DNA of 14,452 nt. Source: a virus (taxonomy: Duplodnaviria > Heunggongvirae > Uroviricota > Caudoviricetes). Below, piece after piece: positions 1,722-13,164 of this stretch; position 1 is the first letter of the stretch; every line of letters starts with the position of its first letter. The position numbers were made by a program, and so were the translations under genes. Location of the stretch: IMG/VR virus record IMGVR_UViG_2700989509_000022, one strand, 5' to 3'. The notes under the pieces were generated by a model. It made no database searches, was not told the origin of the DNA, and was given only the letters and a program-made list of their open reading frames with translations.

Positions 1722-2033
1722 AGCCTGCTTCTCCTTGCCTTCCGGCACGTAAGAGGCTAACCTACATGTGTCTAGCATAAATTGGCCTCAGATTAATGTT
1801 AAGCGTCTTGCAGGACGCGTAATGTTAACTGGGGCTTTTCTCTATCTGCCTTTGGTGTTCATGCCTGAGACAGATAGCCTCAAGCACCCGCAGCCATTCT
1901 ACTTAACTCCCGTTACCCCGCCAATATGAAATCAGTCAGAAAGGCGATCCATAAGAATAATGAATTCTGTAAGGCAATAGTCTCACTGTCTAACATATCT
2001 TACCTGATTACTTTACAATATAATAATTCATAG

Positions 2034-2678
2034 TTAAATCAAATGAATGTCATCATCCAATAATTCATTAGTAGTAATACTACCTTTTTTGAAAAAATTT
2101 TCATTTGCCTCAGCAATTTTTGCATCATTAACAAATTCATCACACATCCCAAAATAATGAAAAAATCTATTTAGTTTACATATTCCAATGGTATAGTGCC
2201 CTTTAGGTGTTTTGTCCACATAAACACGATTTGCTTTTATAATATGCATCTCATAATCATCTATATGTGGATGAACGATGCGAAATGATGCAGATGCAGT
2301 TGGATAGTTTTTGCGCCGCCCCCCATTTATTACGGGTTCAAATAACACTTCATTTTTACCTTTGAATTCATTGCAGTCAGGACATACTACACATAGATTC
2401 TTAGGTTCAAAAATAAAACATAGATATTGAGATTTTGGCACAATATGCTCTATAGGAGCAGCTTGTGCAGCTCTTACCCCAATAGGCTCATGACAATATA
2501 CACATTCTAGCTTTTGTTCTTCTCTGTAATGATTTCTAATTTCTGCACGGAGAACTTGCAAATCATCATCTCCCCAGTTGGTATGCTTAAAATCTGGAGA
2601 AGACAATTTTTTCTCAATAATATCTAATGACTCTGCGCTGAATCTAATTGGATTTTTAATTTTTGGCATAAATTTCAC
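2034..2678 (-). CDS. HNH endonuclease, PtuB-like (Septu-like nuclease component)
   Basis: CVYCHEP ... IEHIVPKS ... CVVCPDCNEFKGKN gives CxxC, a catalytic His and CxxCxxCN, i.e. an HNH ββα-metal motif. Visibly AT-rich. Start is GTG at 2678 or ATG at 2669, with AGGTG upstream. Overlaps the upstream ATPase by 14-23 nt. Confidence 0.7.
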   Translation of the reverse strand: MKFMPKIKNPIRFSAESLDIIEKKLSSPDFKHTNWGDDDLQVLRAEIRNHYREEQKLECVYCHEPIGVRAAQAAPIEHIVPKSQYLCFIFEPKNLCVVCPDCNEFKGKNEVLFEPVINGGRRKNYPTASASFRIVHPHIDDYEMHIIKANRVYVDKTPKGHYTIGICKLNRFFHYFGMCDEFVNDAKIAEANENFFKKGSITTNELLDDDIHLI

Positions 2679-4029
2679 ACACCTGAGATACGGAATTTAC
2701 GAGTTCATTAATAGGGTCATTACTATTAACGTTTTCAAGGAGAAGCTGGAGTTGTTTTAATTCACGCCAATTATCATCTGTTACTAACTTAGCAGTCTTA
2801 ACTTTTGAAAGTAAATTGAAAGCTAATCTGGCAATGTATTCATTCATAATGCCAGGGGCATCAAATAGTTCCGCAAGTTGATAGTCTGCAGACCGGTTGC
2901 TAAAGTATTTTGCTTTATAAAGATAACTTTTCGACAAAGATGTTATATAACAACCTTTATTCGGCAAATTGGATATTATTTGTGGTGAATGAGTTGCAAT
3001 TATGAATTGACAACCTGAGTAAGTTAAAAATGCTTTTGTTAACATAATGATAAACTCTTCCTGCCATCGAGGATGCAAGCTTATTTCCGGTTCATCAATT
3101 AGTATTATAGAACCATCAGTTATATGCCCTGCAATTCCAAGCAACATCACTAATAAACATTGTTCTCCCGAGCTCGCACGTTTAAGTGACATGGGACCAT
3201 AGCTTTTTTTTATGAGTCGCATATCCATCAATCTCATGAAGCCAGCGTTCATAAGTTTAAGAATTGATCTAGAAAAATAATTATTCGCATAAGTCGAGCC
3301 AACCAATGTTTCACCATTGGTAAAATCGACTGACAAGGTTACAGCCCTACGTTCAGGTTCAAATCGATTAATTTCAACCAGTGCTTCGTAAATATCATGA
3401 CGTGATTCGGAGTTTAACTTTAAGAGACTCTCAATATTCTTCCTGTCAATTTTTATATTGTATTTTAAATATAACTCCTTAACTTCCGTTAATATCTCAT
3501 CTGAATATACACCAATGAAGTTATAGTCAGGAGTGTCCGGTCCGTTGTAAGTTGGTTTAAATACAAACTCTATATGGGGCTCAAAATCAATAGAATGAAA
3601 AACATCGAGTAAATTTGCAGGATTTTCTGAATAAGCAAGTTTCTCTAGCCAACCTCTCGCTGCTGAAGATAAAAGGGATACGGCATTTGATACGCCGAAG
3701 GGGCCTTCTCCACGCATACCCACATAGCGATAATTATTTTCTTTCCTTTGGTGATTTAATGACCTACGCCCTGGAGGGAATTTATCGAATGGGCTGGTAG
3801 ATACGGCAATTAACTTTGGTGTTATTTCTCTGTCAAATAATGGATTAAAAGTTTTCAAGAAATGAACATCTTGAATACAGTCTTTAGCAATCTGAGATAA
3901 CAATCTGCTTTTTCCAACGCCATTTTTACCTACAATTACTGTAAAAATATTCGCATTATCAGAAACATCACCTTCTACAGCAAGTTTTAAGGTTCGACTA
4001 TCATGATGGGTATAATATAGTCTTTTCAT
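2656..4029 (-). CDS. ABC/AAA_21-type ATPase, PtuA-like (Septu-like ATPase component)
   Basis: Walker A VGKNGVGKS, signature-like ASSGEQ, Walker B IILIDEPEISLHP and H-loop IIATHSPQI in a 457-aa ORF. AT-rich, and the stop overlaps the start of the HNH gene. Confidence 0.75.
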   Translation of the reverse strand: MKRLYYTHHDSRTLKLAVEGDVSDNANIFTVIVGKNGVGKSRLLSQIAKDCIQDVHFLKTFNPLFDREITPKLIAVSTSPFDKFPPGRRSLNHQRKENNYRYVGMRGEGPFGVSNAVSLLSSAARGWLEKLAYSENPANLLDVFHSIDFEPHIEFVFKPTYNGPDTPDYNFIGVYSDEILTEVKELYLKYNIKIDRKNIESLLKLNSESRHDIYEALVEINRFEPERRAVTLSVDFTNGETLVGSTYANNYFSRSILKLMNAGFMRLMDMRLIKKSYGPMSLKRASSGEQCLLVMLLGIAGHITDGSIILIDEPEISLHPRWQEEFIIMLTKAFLTYSGCQFIIATHSPQIISNLPNKGCYITSLSKSYLYKAKYFSNRSADYQLAELFDAPGIMNEYIARLAFNLLSKVKTAKLVTDDNWRELKQLQLLLENVNSNDPINELVNSVSQVCEIYAKN

Positions 4030-4413
4030 TTTATTTTTCTCTCATTAAAATGCTCTTAATTAAGAATACCTATGCCTTTAACAGGCTCATAGTTATGATT
4101 TGTGATGCTTTCAAAAGGGTATGTAACTAAGTATTGAACTCTACACCTAAGATTCTAAGATTTTTAAATTAAAGTAGTTAAACATGCTTTTGATTGTACT
4201 CATTCTATGTCCATCGTTGCTGCATGTCTAGATATCGTGCCCCGCTATTGTTATGTAATGATATGATGGACGCCCTGTCTGAAGCAGCCAGTGAAATATT
4301 TTTACTGTCTGCGTTTTCTACAGGAGTAAATCACATGAGCACAATCAGAGTTGTTGGTATTGATATTGACCTGTGCCCAATTTTTTGAGACATATATTGG
4401 TACGCTCTTGGCA

Positions 4414-4435
4414 CAGGGCTGCTGCTGCAGCCCTG
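4414..4435. repeat. Perfect 9-bp inverted repeat with 4-nt loop (CAGGGCTGC-TGCT-GCAGCCCTG)
   Basis: Read directly; lies within 10 nt of the stop of the recombinase remnant on the minus strand. No U-tract, so not a canonical terminator. Confidence 0.6.
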
Positions 4436-4441
4436 ACAGCT

Positions 4442-5010
4442 TTAGACTTCGATCGATTCAGAGATCTCTAATGCATCATCAACTTCTATACCCAGATAAC
4501 GAACTGTGCTTTCCGTTTTCTTATGGCCCAACGGAAGTTGGATCACCCGGAGATTCTTAGTTTTCTTGCAGACAAGGCAAGGTTTTGTTCTTCTCATGGA
4601 ATGTGTGCTGTAAAGCGAATCTTCGAGACCAAGCTTTTCTCCCCCCTATGAAAGATTCGGTTATATTGCAGGATTGATATGTGTTGGTTAGTACCGACCC
4701 GAGATCGGAACAAGTAGTCTTTACTGCGTAAATTGCCAAGCTTTATCAATGCAGAAACAGCTTCTCTTGTCCCTTTGGTTATCTCAAATTGGATAGGACT
4801 GCCAGTTTTTCAGTTGCAGCACCGTAGCTCTGCTTGAAACCGAGCTAAATCACGCGTTTTACCTTCCAGTTCAAGCCGGATTTGGAGCCCCCAGATATGA
4901 GATATCTGAAGTGGTCTTTTTGGGCCTATGATACTGTCTTTGTTCCTCGGTGACGTATTCATACTCAAATCTCCTGCAATGTGGAAGATTTGAGTATGGT
5001 TGTCTCTCAA
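4442..5010 (-). pseudogene. Decayed tyrosine recombinase/integrase with at least two frameshifts
   Basis: Minus-strand translation ending at stop 4442..4444 gives KNLRVIQLPLGHKKTESTVRYLGIEVDDALEISESIEV, a typical tyrosine-recombinase C-terminus (compare Xer DLRVIQELLGH...Y). The preceding frame (4557..4739) carries RRFALQHTFHEKNKTLPCLQEN, the HxxR box region. No single long ORF remains; the 4810..5010 piece is in a third frame. Confidence 0.55.
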
Positions 5011-5067
5011 GAGCGAAATAGGTCAACTATAACTAGTTGTTGTGCATGTACGAATTCTGCCAATTAA

Positions 5068-5910
5068 TTATTGACAATAAAAAATTCTGGAATGTTCGAA
5101 ATCATCATATCGAATTATAATCTGGTTGACTGCATCTATTGTTGGCGCCATTTCAGTTATAATATCTCGATAACCTAAAGAGTTAAATACATTTACTAAG
5201 GCCTCACACCGCAGGCCAATAGCAATTACGACATTATAAATTGCCAGCCGTTTATTTTCTTGTTTAACTGCAAGAGTGAGTTCGATAGCAGTAGTTTTAT
5301 CGCTTTGGATTGCATTATATAGAGATACTATATTTGCCATATCATCAGAGAATGTATGTATTGAATCACAAAGAGGGACGTAATAGGCATGATAGTGTGT
5401 TTCCCAGCCAATTACTTCGAAAAGCTTTTTGGTTCCAGGATATTCAGGTGTATTTGGCCACAATCTATTAAACATATCAGTTAGCTCTTTTCCGATACGA
5501 ATCCTTTCATCTGCTGCTGGATTAGTCATTTCTTTGGATTTTAAACACTCCAGCCACCGTTTCCCATTACTATGAACTAATTTCTTACTACCCTTGAGTA
5601 ATGCTTGTGCATTTTTTCCATCATCAATTGCTATATAAAATTGATTGGCAGCCTGTTCCATTATAACTCTAGTTAATACTTCCGATGCTGAAAAGGCTCC
5701 GGTACTCAAAGAAAATATAGCCTGATTACTAAGTTCATTCAGTACATTAAAGTAATGTAAAACCATCAATTTTTGTTCCACCCCCTTTAGGTTATCTATT
5801 TTATTTTTATGCCTCTCAAATTTCGCATGGATATATTTATTTATCGCGGCTATTTTTTTTACATCTTCGTCGAAATCAAACGGGCAACGTCCAAACGATT
5901 TTTTCCTCAT
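5068..5910 (-). CDS. Hypothetical protein (280 aa), AT-rich cargo gene of unknown function
   Basis: ATG at 5910 with AGGAGG 5 nt upstream. Composition differs from the flanking prophage genes. I recognise no catalytic motif. Confidence 0.8.
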   Translation of the reverse strand: MRKKSFGRCPFDFDEDVKKIAAINKYIHAKFERHKNKIDNLKGVEQKLMVLHYFNVLNELSNQAIFSLSTGAFSASEVLTRVIMEQAANQFYIAIDDGKNAQALLKGSKKLVHSNGKRWLECLKSKEMTNPAADERIRIGKELTDMFNRLWPNTPEYPGTKKLFEVIGWETHYHAYYVPLCDSIHTFSDDMANIVSLYNAIQSDKTTAIELTLAVKQENKRLAIYNVVIAIGLRCEALVNVFNSLGYRDIITEMAPTIDAVNQIIIRYDDFEHSRIFYCQ

Positions 5911-6349
5911 ATATTCCTCCTGTTTTACAATCTCCCATAAGTTGGAAAATTATACACTGGAGATTACCTATAAATAACTGCGCACGATAGCTAGTCAGTG
6001 CAAGAAGTACAACCAAGTGAACGGTGCGTATCAGATACCTAGCTTAAAGTTCGCGATAGCCGTACTCTGTGTATTAGCTCAGACATTACCTGACAGGTTG
6101 AGTAGATAGAATCGAATCAAAGCTGACAGTCTGGTTTGGACTGTGGGGTCAACCGATGGATGCAACACACAGCGATCTACAGACATTACTAACATAGCGG
6201 TGTATTAATCATCGGGGAGCAGATCAGACTAACATTAAGCATTAGTAGTAATTTGCAGAGCATCCGTTTCTTACACAAAGCAAACCCCCACGCTAGCCCA
6301 ACCCTGTGCCACACAATGTCAATTCACATCTGAACTAATGCTCTTTAAT

Positions 6350-6624
6350 CTAGTAACGTCTAAAATATCGAACATTTCCCTGATAAAATGCCAGTATGCG
6401 CTGCATAACTTCACTCATTGTGGTGGTTTCTTCCGGCAGTTCTGCCTGCGCTGGCTGTTCCTGCTGAACGTTGTTATAAGCCACACGCCAGGTGTACGCG
6501 CTTTTATCAACAAAACCAGCCTTTTTCAGTTCCCATAGTTCGTTCAGCACTTCTTCACGCGCGCAGCAAGTTCTATGGATGTGGCTTTTCCCATTGCTTT
6601 CAGTGCGTCAAAAACAGTCTCCAT
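6350..6624 (-). pseudogene. Ren-like winged-helix protein gene, apparent single-base frameshift
   Basis: ATG at 6624 with GGGAGG 6 nt upstream gives [26 protein letters not shown] then TGA. The adjacent frame continues [26 protein letters not shown]...[18 protein letters not shown] with no ATG. The joined product resembles lambda Ren as I recall it, and the gene sits directly after the P-like gene as ren does in lambda. Confidence 0.5.
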
Positions 6625-6656
6625 AAATTTCCTCCCGGTAAAAATTACTTCTCAAC

Positions 6657-7322
6657 TCAGACAAGCCCAGCCGCTTTCCGGCGTTCATATTCCTGTTTCA
6701 GCAACTCAATTGGCGTTGGCCCCGACGGGCGTTTGGGTGCCGCCAGTTGTCGCCGGACTGGCGGAACACTCAGGCCGTTACTAACATGCTTTGCCCATTT
6801 CGTCAGCTGCCGTTCTGCAAGCCGTTTTAACTCCCCTTCGGTCATCTGCCGCTCAATCCCCTTTGAACGCATCTCGAGGCAAATGTGATACAGCACAGGC
6901 TGAGACCACGGGTATTTATCGCTCCCGTCGTATCGCCAGGACTCGTTGCGCCAGCGACGGTACTCCTCCATCACGGCATCCACCGTCAGACCGAATGGAT
7001 TGGCTCCGCTTTCAGAAATCAGCGCCACAAACTCAGCCAGGTCCGGAGGCCATGTTTCACCCGCCCGGCAGCGGTCCATGCACTGGCGGCAGACCTGTCG
7101 GATTTGCTGCTCAGTCATCGCACCAATCTGTGCAATCCAGAGCTTCGAAGGTGCGGCCCCGTTCTTCTGGGTCCAGCGGTTCGAATAAACCTCCCCCATG
7201 AGTTCCCACAGCTTCCAGGCCGTTTCCGTCGCTGATAAATCCGTTTTCACGTTCCCACTGCTCACGTGCTGCCCGAATTTCCTGAACTGCCCGTGATGCG
7301 GTGTCACCTGGTGCTGCTGCAT
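6657..7322 (-). CDS. Replication protein P-like (helicase loader)
   Basis: YPWSQPVLYHICLEMRSKGIERQMTEGELKRLAERQLTKWAKHV parallels the lambda P C-terminal region (recalled). ATG at 7322 with AGGGGG 6 nt upstream. The first ~210 nt overlap the O-like gene out of frame; alternative in-frame starts exist at 7199 and 7118. Confidence 0.7.
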   Translation of the reverse strand: MQQHQVTPHHGQFRKFGQHVSSGNVKTDLSATETAWKLWELMGEVYSNRWTQKNGAAPSKLWIAQIGAMTEQQIRQVCRQCMDRCRAGETWPPDLAEFVALISESGANPFGLTVDAVMEEYRRWRNESWRYDGSDKYPWSQPVLYHICLEMRSKGIERQMTEGELKRLAERQLTKWAKHVSNGLSVPPVRRQLAAPKRPSGPTPIELLKQEYERRKAAGLV

Positions 7323-12007: not shown

Positions 12008-12097
12008 TGGCGGAGAGAGGGGGATTTGAACCCCCGGTGGAGTTGCCCCCACTCCGGTTTTCGAGACCGGTCCGTTCAGCCGCTCCGGCATCTCTCC
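12008..12097 (-). tRNA. serU: tRNA-Ser (anticodon CGA)
   Basis: Reverse complement reads GGAGAGATGCCGGAGCGGCTGAACGGACCGGTCTCGAAAACC...GGTTCAAATCCCCCTCTCTCCGCCA: type II tRNA with long variable arm, anticodon loop CUCGAAA, encoded CCA. The serU-mtfA-asnT context fits E. coli. Confidence 0.93.
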
Positions 12098-13088: not shown

Positions 13089-13164
13089 TCCTCTGTAGTT
13101 CAGTCGGTAGAACGGCGGACTGTTAATCCGTATGTCACTGGTTCGAGTCCAGTCAGAGGAGCCA
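13089..13164 (+). tRNA. asnT: tRNA-Asn (anticodon GUU)
   Basis: TCCTCTGTAGTTCAGTCGGTAGAACGGCGGACTGTTAATCCGTATGTCACTGGTTCGAGTCCAGTCAGAGGAGCCA, 76 nt, anticodon loop CUGUUAA. Locus identity is inferred from the mtfA neighbour. Confidence 0.93.

Follow-up and report, generated by a model that had tools for sequence, protein, structure and literature searches.

A prophage spacer as the probable upstream edge of an imported DUF5677 cargo unit

Genes and features at the locus

The window, that is, the whole stretch of DNA analysed here (14,452 nucleotides of the viral record IMGVR_UViG_2700989509_000022), is a lambdoid prophage of the Qin/Rac type in reverse orientation. It is decaying, since both the gene at the ren position and the small recombinase gene of the cargo region are frameshifted (Table 1). 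We analysed the spacer that separates the ren-position gene, whose reading frame ends with the TAG at 6350-6352, from a 280-amino-acid gene that starts with the ATG at 5910 on the minus strand. An identical locus is present in EPEC E2348/69, where the spacer (NC_011601, 1276802-1277240) is 99.8% identical, and the whole spacer occurs at 99% identity or more in 17 complete E. coli genomes (E2348/69 and 16 others). A reading made from the sequence alone had named the upstream neighbour ren; the gene does occupy the ren position, but it is a DUF1627 gene and not a homologue of lambda Ren. Downstream, a complete Septu defence system (2034-4029, minus strand) shares its cargo region with the 280-amino-acid gene. 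The sok/hokD locus forms the far side of what we describe below as a cargo hotspot, and in E2348/69 an IS481-family element is inserted beside it. Two tRNA genes lie about 4 kb past cro and the repressor gene of the immunity region (about 8.7-9.4 kb) and may mark a prophage end or attachment region there.

Table 1 Positions of features in the window and of related sites in other records
Feature	Position	Strand	Evidence or remark
tRNA gene	13089-13161	plus	Rfam RF00005, 72.6 bits
tRNA gene	12011-12097	minus	Rfam RF00005, 57 bits
Replication protein P	6657-7322	minus	Pfam Phage_lambda_P
ren-position gene, frameshifted	~6350-6626	minus	RefSeq DUF1627 pseudogene in E2348/69; rest continues in another frame
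Spacer	5911-6349	minus	Read towards the DUF5677 gene
Lambdoid backbone 3′ of the ren-position DUF1627 pseudogene; outer part of hotspot boundary	6290-6349	minus	83-87% identical, same position in Evi, Tritos and 204576
Decayed boundary hairpin	6261-6289	minus	Reads GGGGGTTTGCTTTGTGTAAGAAACGGATG; in-register alignment with intact copies
Filler, 34 nt, this lineage only	6227-6260	minus	Missing in P2-type, Buttiauxella and BS0013 versions
IS scar, 47 nt: left terminal repeat and start of IS leader, ISSen4-like, IS3 family	6180-6226	minus	89% identity over 46-47 nt
Distal segment of leader	6111-6179	minus	Common to P2-type and Buttiauxella cassettes, not BS0013; 94% identical to P2-type
Degenerate, outward-facing partial boundary repeat CACAGTCCAAACCAGACTGTCAG	6123-6145		Inverted partial repeat seen in SF-468 and IHE3034
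Core leader, all contexts	5911-6110	minus	83-90% identity in P2-like prophages, Buttiauxella and BS0013
Predicted -35 TTATTT, weak	5972-5977	minus	2/6 consensus positions, 17-nt spacing
Dyad arms AATCTCC and GGAGATT, 7 bp	5959-5965 and 5929-5935		Bracket the predicted -10
Predicted -10 TATAAT, perfect	5949-5954	minus	Invariant
Shine-Dalgarno motif AGGAGG	5916-5921	minus	5 nt before ATG; counted from the motif, the A at 5910 is base 6
DUF5677 gene, 280 aa	5068-5910	minus	Pfam PF18928
Near-perfect 15-9-15 palindrome CATACTCAAATCTCC-N9-GGAGATTTGAGTATG	4960-4998; L010 4565-4603; L011 4143-4181		Overlaps recombinase start codon
Small tyrosine recombinase, frameshifted pseudogene	~4478-4962	minus	
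PtuA (Septu), 457 aa	2656-4029	minus	PADLOC PDLC00283, E=1e-165
PtuB (Septu), 214 aa, HNH	2034-2678	minus	PADLOC PDLC00325, E=1e-83
sok antitoxin RNA, hok/sok type I toxin-antitoxin locus (hokD)	1716-1889	minus	Rfam RF01794, 113.5 bits
Hairpin-18 nt-hairpin joints	L064 1321-1386; L095 6888-6953; L121 13872-13937; L003 ~2690-2760		
Sites similar to parts of the leader (upstream of essD; strain MS1685)	L157 3001-3064; L158 3001-3055		

The 280-amino-acid protein matches Pfam PF18928 (E=3.3e-9) and PHROG 4167 (unknown function), and is named DUF5677 in RefSeq. Searches of PADLOC and NCBIfam gave no match to it. The family is tiny, with six matches among 5.8 billion clusters; we found no relatives in the phage collection and a single one in the plasmid collection, itself a duplicate of an E. 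coli genome record. A defence role for the protein was considered and rejected: PADLOC gave no match, and in PMC12632615 the DUF5677 gene of a lactic acid bacterium (Gram-positive), one of nine ORFs assayed in Enterococcus faecalis, is absent from the list of five active ORFs.

The same sequence-only reading had described the spacer as about 440 bp long, coding-poor and of mid-range GC, a description that proved accurate, coordinates included. The longest ORFs overlapping 5911-6349 have 46, 41 and 38 codons' worth of amino acids, a search of all ORFs of at least 20 amino acids in the spacer returned no PHROG match, and no feature is annotated in it in any of the 17 genomes. Its GC content (0.40-0.455) falls between those of the DUF5677 gene (0.33-0.38) and the ren-like gene (0.45-0.50), so that 'mid-range' is correct with respect to both neighbours, the AT-rich cargo gene and the backbone. 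A stretch of 439 bp without an ORF is statistically unremarkable in random sequence; it is unusual for the tightly packed early region of a prophage, and its unannotated status is reproducible. Judged by its matches in other genomes, the spacer is a mosaic of pieces that differ in origin.

Backbone flank and insertion-sequence scar

We compared the spacer with 50,697 phage records by blastn. The backbone matched only at 6263-6349, in the lambdoid phages Evi, Tritos, 204576 and mEp460, and phage backbone similarity ends at 6263-6274. A further search matched 1593 E. coli genomes, and roughly the lower half of the matches listed covers the flank only (6266-6349, about 83-88% identity). In Evi and Tritos this flank lies directly 3′ of the ren-position gene and is followed by quite different cargo and then by hokD. 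Between the ren-position gene and hokD, Evi carries an acetyltransferase and a regulator, Tritos a 444-amino-acid ORF, and the window the DUF5677 gene and Septu. Because one site holds different cargo in Evi and Tritos, we conclude that the interval between the ren-position gene and hokD is a variable cargo hotspot. A boundary hairpin stands on both sides of the cargo in these two phages.

Inward of the flank and its hairpin, the window has a short filler that is peculiar to its lineage; in the P2-type, Buttiauxella and BS0013 versions the IS scar or the leader follows the hairpin directly. The scar, which reads TGATCTGCTCCCCGATGATTAATACACCGCTATGTTAGTAATGTCTG on the minus strand, matches the outer left end of the complete 1.22-kb IS in the mEp234 and PhiR12_5 records, which RefSeq names 'IS3-like element ISSen4 family'. 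Like solo ends and scars of the IS3 family, it consists of a left terminal repeat and adjoining leader, here 47 nt that begin with TGA and are 89% identical. The similarity to the IS ends after these 47 nt, and therefore only a scar is present. Unlike a complete ISSen4-like element, it has no transposase, right end or recognisable target duplication, and a search of 1900-6700 found no inverted partner of the IS end. The sequence-only reading had allowed for a recombination junction in the spacer, and these matches bear that out: the backbone ends in a decayed hairpin, an IS3-family scar follows, and the remainder appears to have been imported with the DUF5677 gene.

Boundary hairpin

The boundary hairpin is a 24-nt element with the consensus GTCCGCTTT-GTGCCA-AAAGCGGAC. 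Intact hairpins with which the window copy aligns stand at the corresponding position in Tritos and Evi, on either side of P2 Z-region cargo and on either side of a chromosomal unit in E. coli SCU-101; by manual alignment the window copy has four mismatches to the pattern and a broken stem. Set against the consensus GTCYGCTNTGNGCNARRAGYGGAC with an intact 9-bp stem it falls outside, and we class it as a decayed member. A scan of the window for the hairpin pattern, allowing up to three mismatches, gave no match and hence no second copy anywhere in the window; the far end of the cargo is without its inverted partner. The hokD-side partner of Evi and Tritos lies about 240 nt beyond the point at which the homology of the window to the hokD side ends, and the window has lost it along with some 240 nt of backbone. 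What the window carries, the Septu genes plus the DUF5677 unit, is therefore a composite cargo that has been partly degraded.

The boundary hairpin was already known, as the inverted repeat of the P2 Z region. It is annotated as 'left/right inverted repeat' of that region in GenBank AJ512680 and AJ512683, and in the 'proviral Z-region' entries of P2-EC46, P2-EC58 and P2-EC30 it lies inside the features 'left inverted repeat' and 'right inverted repeat'. The repeats of the P2-like Z/fun region (AJ512676, AJ512680 and AJ512683) have the same core hairpin and the same outer flank, CTAATCTGACA-GTCCGCTNTGNGCNARRAGCGGAC-ATT, as the window, and in both settings the element stands where conserved backbone gives way to variable cargo. 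The Z regions of IHE3034 and SF-468 even hold the very same DUF5677 cargo, so that the window agrees with a P2 Z-region-type cassette in hotspot position and in shared cargo. It differs in its backbone, which is lambdoid of the Qin/Rac type, in its site between the ren-position gene and hokD, in the decay of its hairpin and in the missing partner.

Copies of the hairpin are abundant. A 38-nt consensus query matched 69 phage records, mostly P2-like, and pattern scans detected the hairpin in at least 120 viral contigs. Among the matches listed, P2 G or FI genes lie within 400 nt at 123 of 265 hairpin sites, and ren-like lambdoid genes at 16 of the 265; neighbouring copies in viral contigs, again among the matches listed, face inwards in 21 of 26 pairs, around cargo of 0.5-3.2 kb. 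Back-to-back hairpins with a conserved 18-nt linker (CTTYAGCTCAGTYA...) join tandem cassettes, and it is behind such a joint that the DUF5677 unit stands in BS0013. Hairpins also occur outside prophages: on the chromosome of E. coli SCU-101 (L011 2475-5710) an inward-facing pair bounds a non-prophage unit with an ETEC_3214-family gene, a 200-amino-acid integrase (93% identical to the recombinase of SF-468) and a 366-amino-acid hypothetical gene. At stem pair positions 4/21, the 87 distinct copies from viral contigs include C-G 34 times, T-G 28 times, C-A 11 times and T-A 6 times. A T-G pair at this position is tolerated only in RNA or in single-stranded DNA read inwards towards the cargo. T-G outnumbers C-A, a hint of strand-specific folding, with the reservation that the 87 copies are not independent. 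A likeness to Tn3-family or shufflon sites, which we presumed from the GGGG... ends and the GTGCCAA core, was dropped after the GenBank annotation had identified the element.

Leader and predicted promoter of the DUF5677 gene

Most of the spacer inward of the hairpin belongs to a travelling unit. The segment 5911-6227 together with the DUF5677 gene is about 90% identical in the P2-like prophages IHE3034 and SF-468, where the unit sits in the classical Z/fun position, flanked by the tail-fibre assembly gene G on one side and the sheath gene FI on the other. Leader and gene are also found in a Buttiauxella MAG and in 'Bacterium BS0013', and the core leader accompanies the gene in about 56 of 5426 complete E. 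coli genomes. In BS0013 this leader carries, at another point, what by eye alone appears to be a scar from the right end of a related IS. We rejected the possibility that a long leader is conserved across the DUF5677 family, as relatives at 53% identity have an unrelated upstream region of 136 nt.

The expectation that the spacer holds the promoter of the 280-amino-acid gene, made from the sequence alone, is supported by a plausible candidate. The most plausible predicted promoter has its perfect -10 at the end of the longest nearly invariant block of the leader (TATTTATAGGTAATCTYCAGTGTATAAT), 32 nt upstream of AGGAGG. Transcription from it would start near 5942 and give a 5′ UTR of about 30 nt. 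A consensus promoter scan did not call this promoter because its -35 is poor; the only call was a weak plus-strand promoter that points away from the gene. No intrinsic terminator was predicted in the spacer. The symmetry of the dyad that brackets the -10 is kept in the P2-type allele by one double change (CTCC/GGAG to CTTC/GAAG), a single event, and hints at an operator or a hairpin around the -10.

Between the window and the P2-type version, the leader diverges by 14% from -100 to -1, by 10-12% from -200 to -100, where the window lineage also has a 19-nt deletion, and by 6% from -317 to -200. The corresponding values for the coding sequence are 11-14% at third codon positions and 5-6% at first and second positions. 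As the leader diverges about as much as third codon positions, we conclude that most of it drifts at about the neutral rate. The distal part (-317 to -200) lies below third-position divergence, which could reflect constraint or more recent exchange; BS0013 does not have this better-conserved part.

The unit resembles phage morons in that its gene is foreign and AT-rich (GC 0.33-0.38), comes with a predicted promoter and a leader of its own and occupies a known variable spot, and in that the same leader-gene unit occurs in unrelated phages. It is unlike them in that no terminator turned up, either downstream of the leader or among the predictions for the spacer, and in that its promoter is a prediction.

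Origin and meaning of the spacer

We interpret the spacer as the upstream edge of imported prophage cargo, composed of junction debris and of the promoter and leader of the DUF5677 gene, and put the probability of this reading at about three in four. The outer 90 bp (6261-6349) is lambdoid backbone that ends in a decayed copy of the hairpin repeat marking the borders of exchangeable cargo. An ISSen4-like element of the IS3 family would have inserted just inside this border and later been deleted, with 47 nt of its left end remaining at 6180-6226. About 270 bp (5911-6179) would have arrived with the DUF5677 gene, and the proximal 200 bp of these would be the gene's own leader. In the lysogen, the gene would be transcribed from a sigma-70 promoter with a perfect -10 and a weak -35, and its transcript would carry a 5′ UTR of about 30 nt with a strong Shine-Dalgarno motif. 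During lytic growth, readthrough from the early rightward operon might also reach the gene, given that the orientation is the same and that our search detected no terminator. Elsewhere the spacer would have no function of its own and would be junction debris drifting at about the neutral rate.

Nothing in the spacer is of a new kind. By itself it is of little importance: it indicates how an uncharacterised prophage gene (DUF5677) is probably expressed, and it proves to be junction debris in place of a concealed gene or RNA. Its broader value is modest but practical: one short hairpin marks cargo borders in P2-like and in lambdoid prophages, with identical cargo behind both, and so offers a sequence handle for cargo boundaries, including those of defence systems, in enterobacterial prophages. 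Nilsson, Karlsson and Haggard-Ljungquist reportedly proposed in 2004 (Mol Biol Evol 21:1) that the Z/fun-region cassettes of P2-like coliphages move by site-specific recombination, and the hairpin allows this proposal to be tested. A later paper (PMC9122126) cites the 2004 work for a variable locus of P2 that contains anti-phage genes.

Possible cassette exchange and a small recombinase

A larger system may lie behind these borders, although we regard it as doubtful. The hairpin would then be the site of a cassette-exchange system common to unrelated temperate phages (the P2-like Z region and the lambdoid ren-hokD interval) and to chromosomal islands, with cassettes moved by a putative recombinase. 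If this were true, defence and conversion genes would be shuffled between phage families in an integron-like manner. One candidate enzyme is a tyrosine recombinase of about 195 amino acids, consisting of the catalytic domain only, that is encoded by some cassettes. In the SF-468 cargo it has 194 amino acids and matches Pfam Phage_integrase, while scoring below all NCBIfam cut-offs; DNA similar to its gene is present in many complete E. coli genomes among the matches listed. The palindrome at its start codon occurs in one copy per locus in every context, and its 15-9-15 architecture resembles, by analogy, either a core site of the lox/dif type or a hairpin that hides the start codon.

Integrons offer a functional analogy only. 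In attC sites and cassette arrays, as here, imperfectly palindromic sites separate promoter-poor or promoter-bearing cassettes, which may stand in tandem; unlike integrons, the hairpins form one inward-facing pair per cassette, and neither an integron integrase nor attI is present. The hairpin sequence is unrelated to attC core sites, save for one chance GTTAAGC in Evi.

The same observations raise the question of whether 6261-6349 is a still-active site at which a recombinase swaps cassettes, so that the main role of the spacer would be recombination and not expression. This we consider unlikely. Inward-facing hairpin pairs do bound cargo in P2-like, lambdoid and chromosomal loci, hairpin-18 nt-hairpin units do join tandem cassettes, and the same DUF5677 cargo does lie behind the hairpin in P2-like and lambdoid backbones, but homologous recombination across a shared repeat explains this pattern equally well. 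The window copy itself, with its four mismatches and broken stem, argues against activity, as does the deletion of its hokD-side partner. The cargo of the window has a single recombinase gene, which is a pseudogene, and most hairpin-bounded cassettes lack this recombinase. Since inverted hairpins flank the recombinase cargo of SF-468, we searched for inversion of that unit with a synthetic inverted junction and found the inverted cassette in none of 5426 complete E. coli genomes. An invertible, phase-variable switch operated by the small tyrosine recombinase was accordingly rejected as far as inversion of the whole cassette is concerned.

RNA and coding alternatives

Compared with an active recombination site, we rate an RNA in the spacer as somewhat more improbable still. 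The sequence-only reading had suggested a small RNA, and the leader (about 5955-6180) might encode a structured RNA that regulates in cis, or a small RNA that partners the DUF5677 protein, for instance an RNA antitoxin or sensor, for which RNA-associated abortive-infection systems provide the model. Covariance models gave this no support: none of the families in Rfam 15 reached its gathering score in the spacer, and at E<=10 the only match within 5800-6450 was a DnaX chance match outside the spacer. The minimum free energy on the gene strand (-124.7 kcal/mol) was no better than that of shuffles (-116.4 +/- 6.4; z = -1.3), and the other strand gave z = +1.4. RNAalifold on five distinct leader variants returned a covariation term that was positive (+1.4), and of 68 pairs one was compensatory; the test has little power because there are only about five such variants. 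A constant association speaks for an RNA, as the leader accompanies the DUF5677 gene without exception in four genomic contexts; so do the divergence of just 6% in its distal part, the one compensatory double change in the stem around the -10 and the defence-rich neighbourhood with Septu ptuAB at 2034-4029. Yet the window lineage tolerates a 19-nt deletion, BS0013 does without the distal part, the relatives at 53% identity have a short and unrelated upstream region, the tandem repeats typical of type III antitoxins are absent, and divergence is near that of third codon positions. With Rfam, single-sequence folds and RNAalifold all giving no support, we set aside a structured RNA in the leader.

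The sequence-only reading had also suggested a decayed nin gene. More broadly, the spacer might be what remains of a coding gene, from the nin region or another moron, that has broken down in this cryptic prophage; we consider this hardly credible. In its favour, the prophage does decay, in its frameshifted ren-position gene as in the neighbouring recombinase pseudogene, and a 38-amino-acid ORF (6079-6195, minus strand) is open in P2-type copies with four synonymous and four non-synonymous differences from IHE3034 (manual comparison). Against it, this ORF has no Shine-Dalgarno motif, begins within the IS scar and has no counterpart in BS0013; none of the small ORFs matches a PHROG; all E. coli matches lie in unannotated DNA; and distant-mode blastn, down to about 65-70% identity against the 50,697 phage records, matched only the backbone flank and the IS scar, with no alignment to ninA-ninH or to any other phage gene.

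Further resemblances of the leader

Returning to the spacer as the edge of imported cargo, we note several resemblances of its leader to other DNA. Within the window, the 40 nt at 5963-6002, just upstream of the -10, resemble in inverted orientation (77.5%, E=0.002) a stretch at 4221-4259, about 75 nt upstream of a short ORF (4335-4388; MSTIRVVGIDIDLCPIF) that looks like the putative start of a transposase. A search for the origin of this match led only to related DNA in unannotated island remnants. We treat as chance a partnership between the recombinase palindrome and the dyad around the -10, which have only 7 nt in common and do not co-vary in P2-type alleles. The 64 nt at 6070-6133 match, at 78% identity, a non-coding stretch that precedes the essD holin gene by about 160 nt in the Rac-like prophages of about 790 E. 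coli genomes, and about 6116-6170 has an 87% match in a third context, in strain MS1685. These two resemblances may reflect a shared regulatory or recombination fragment.
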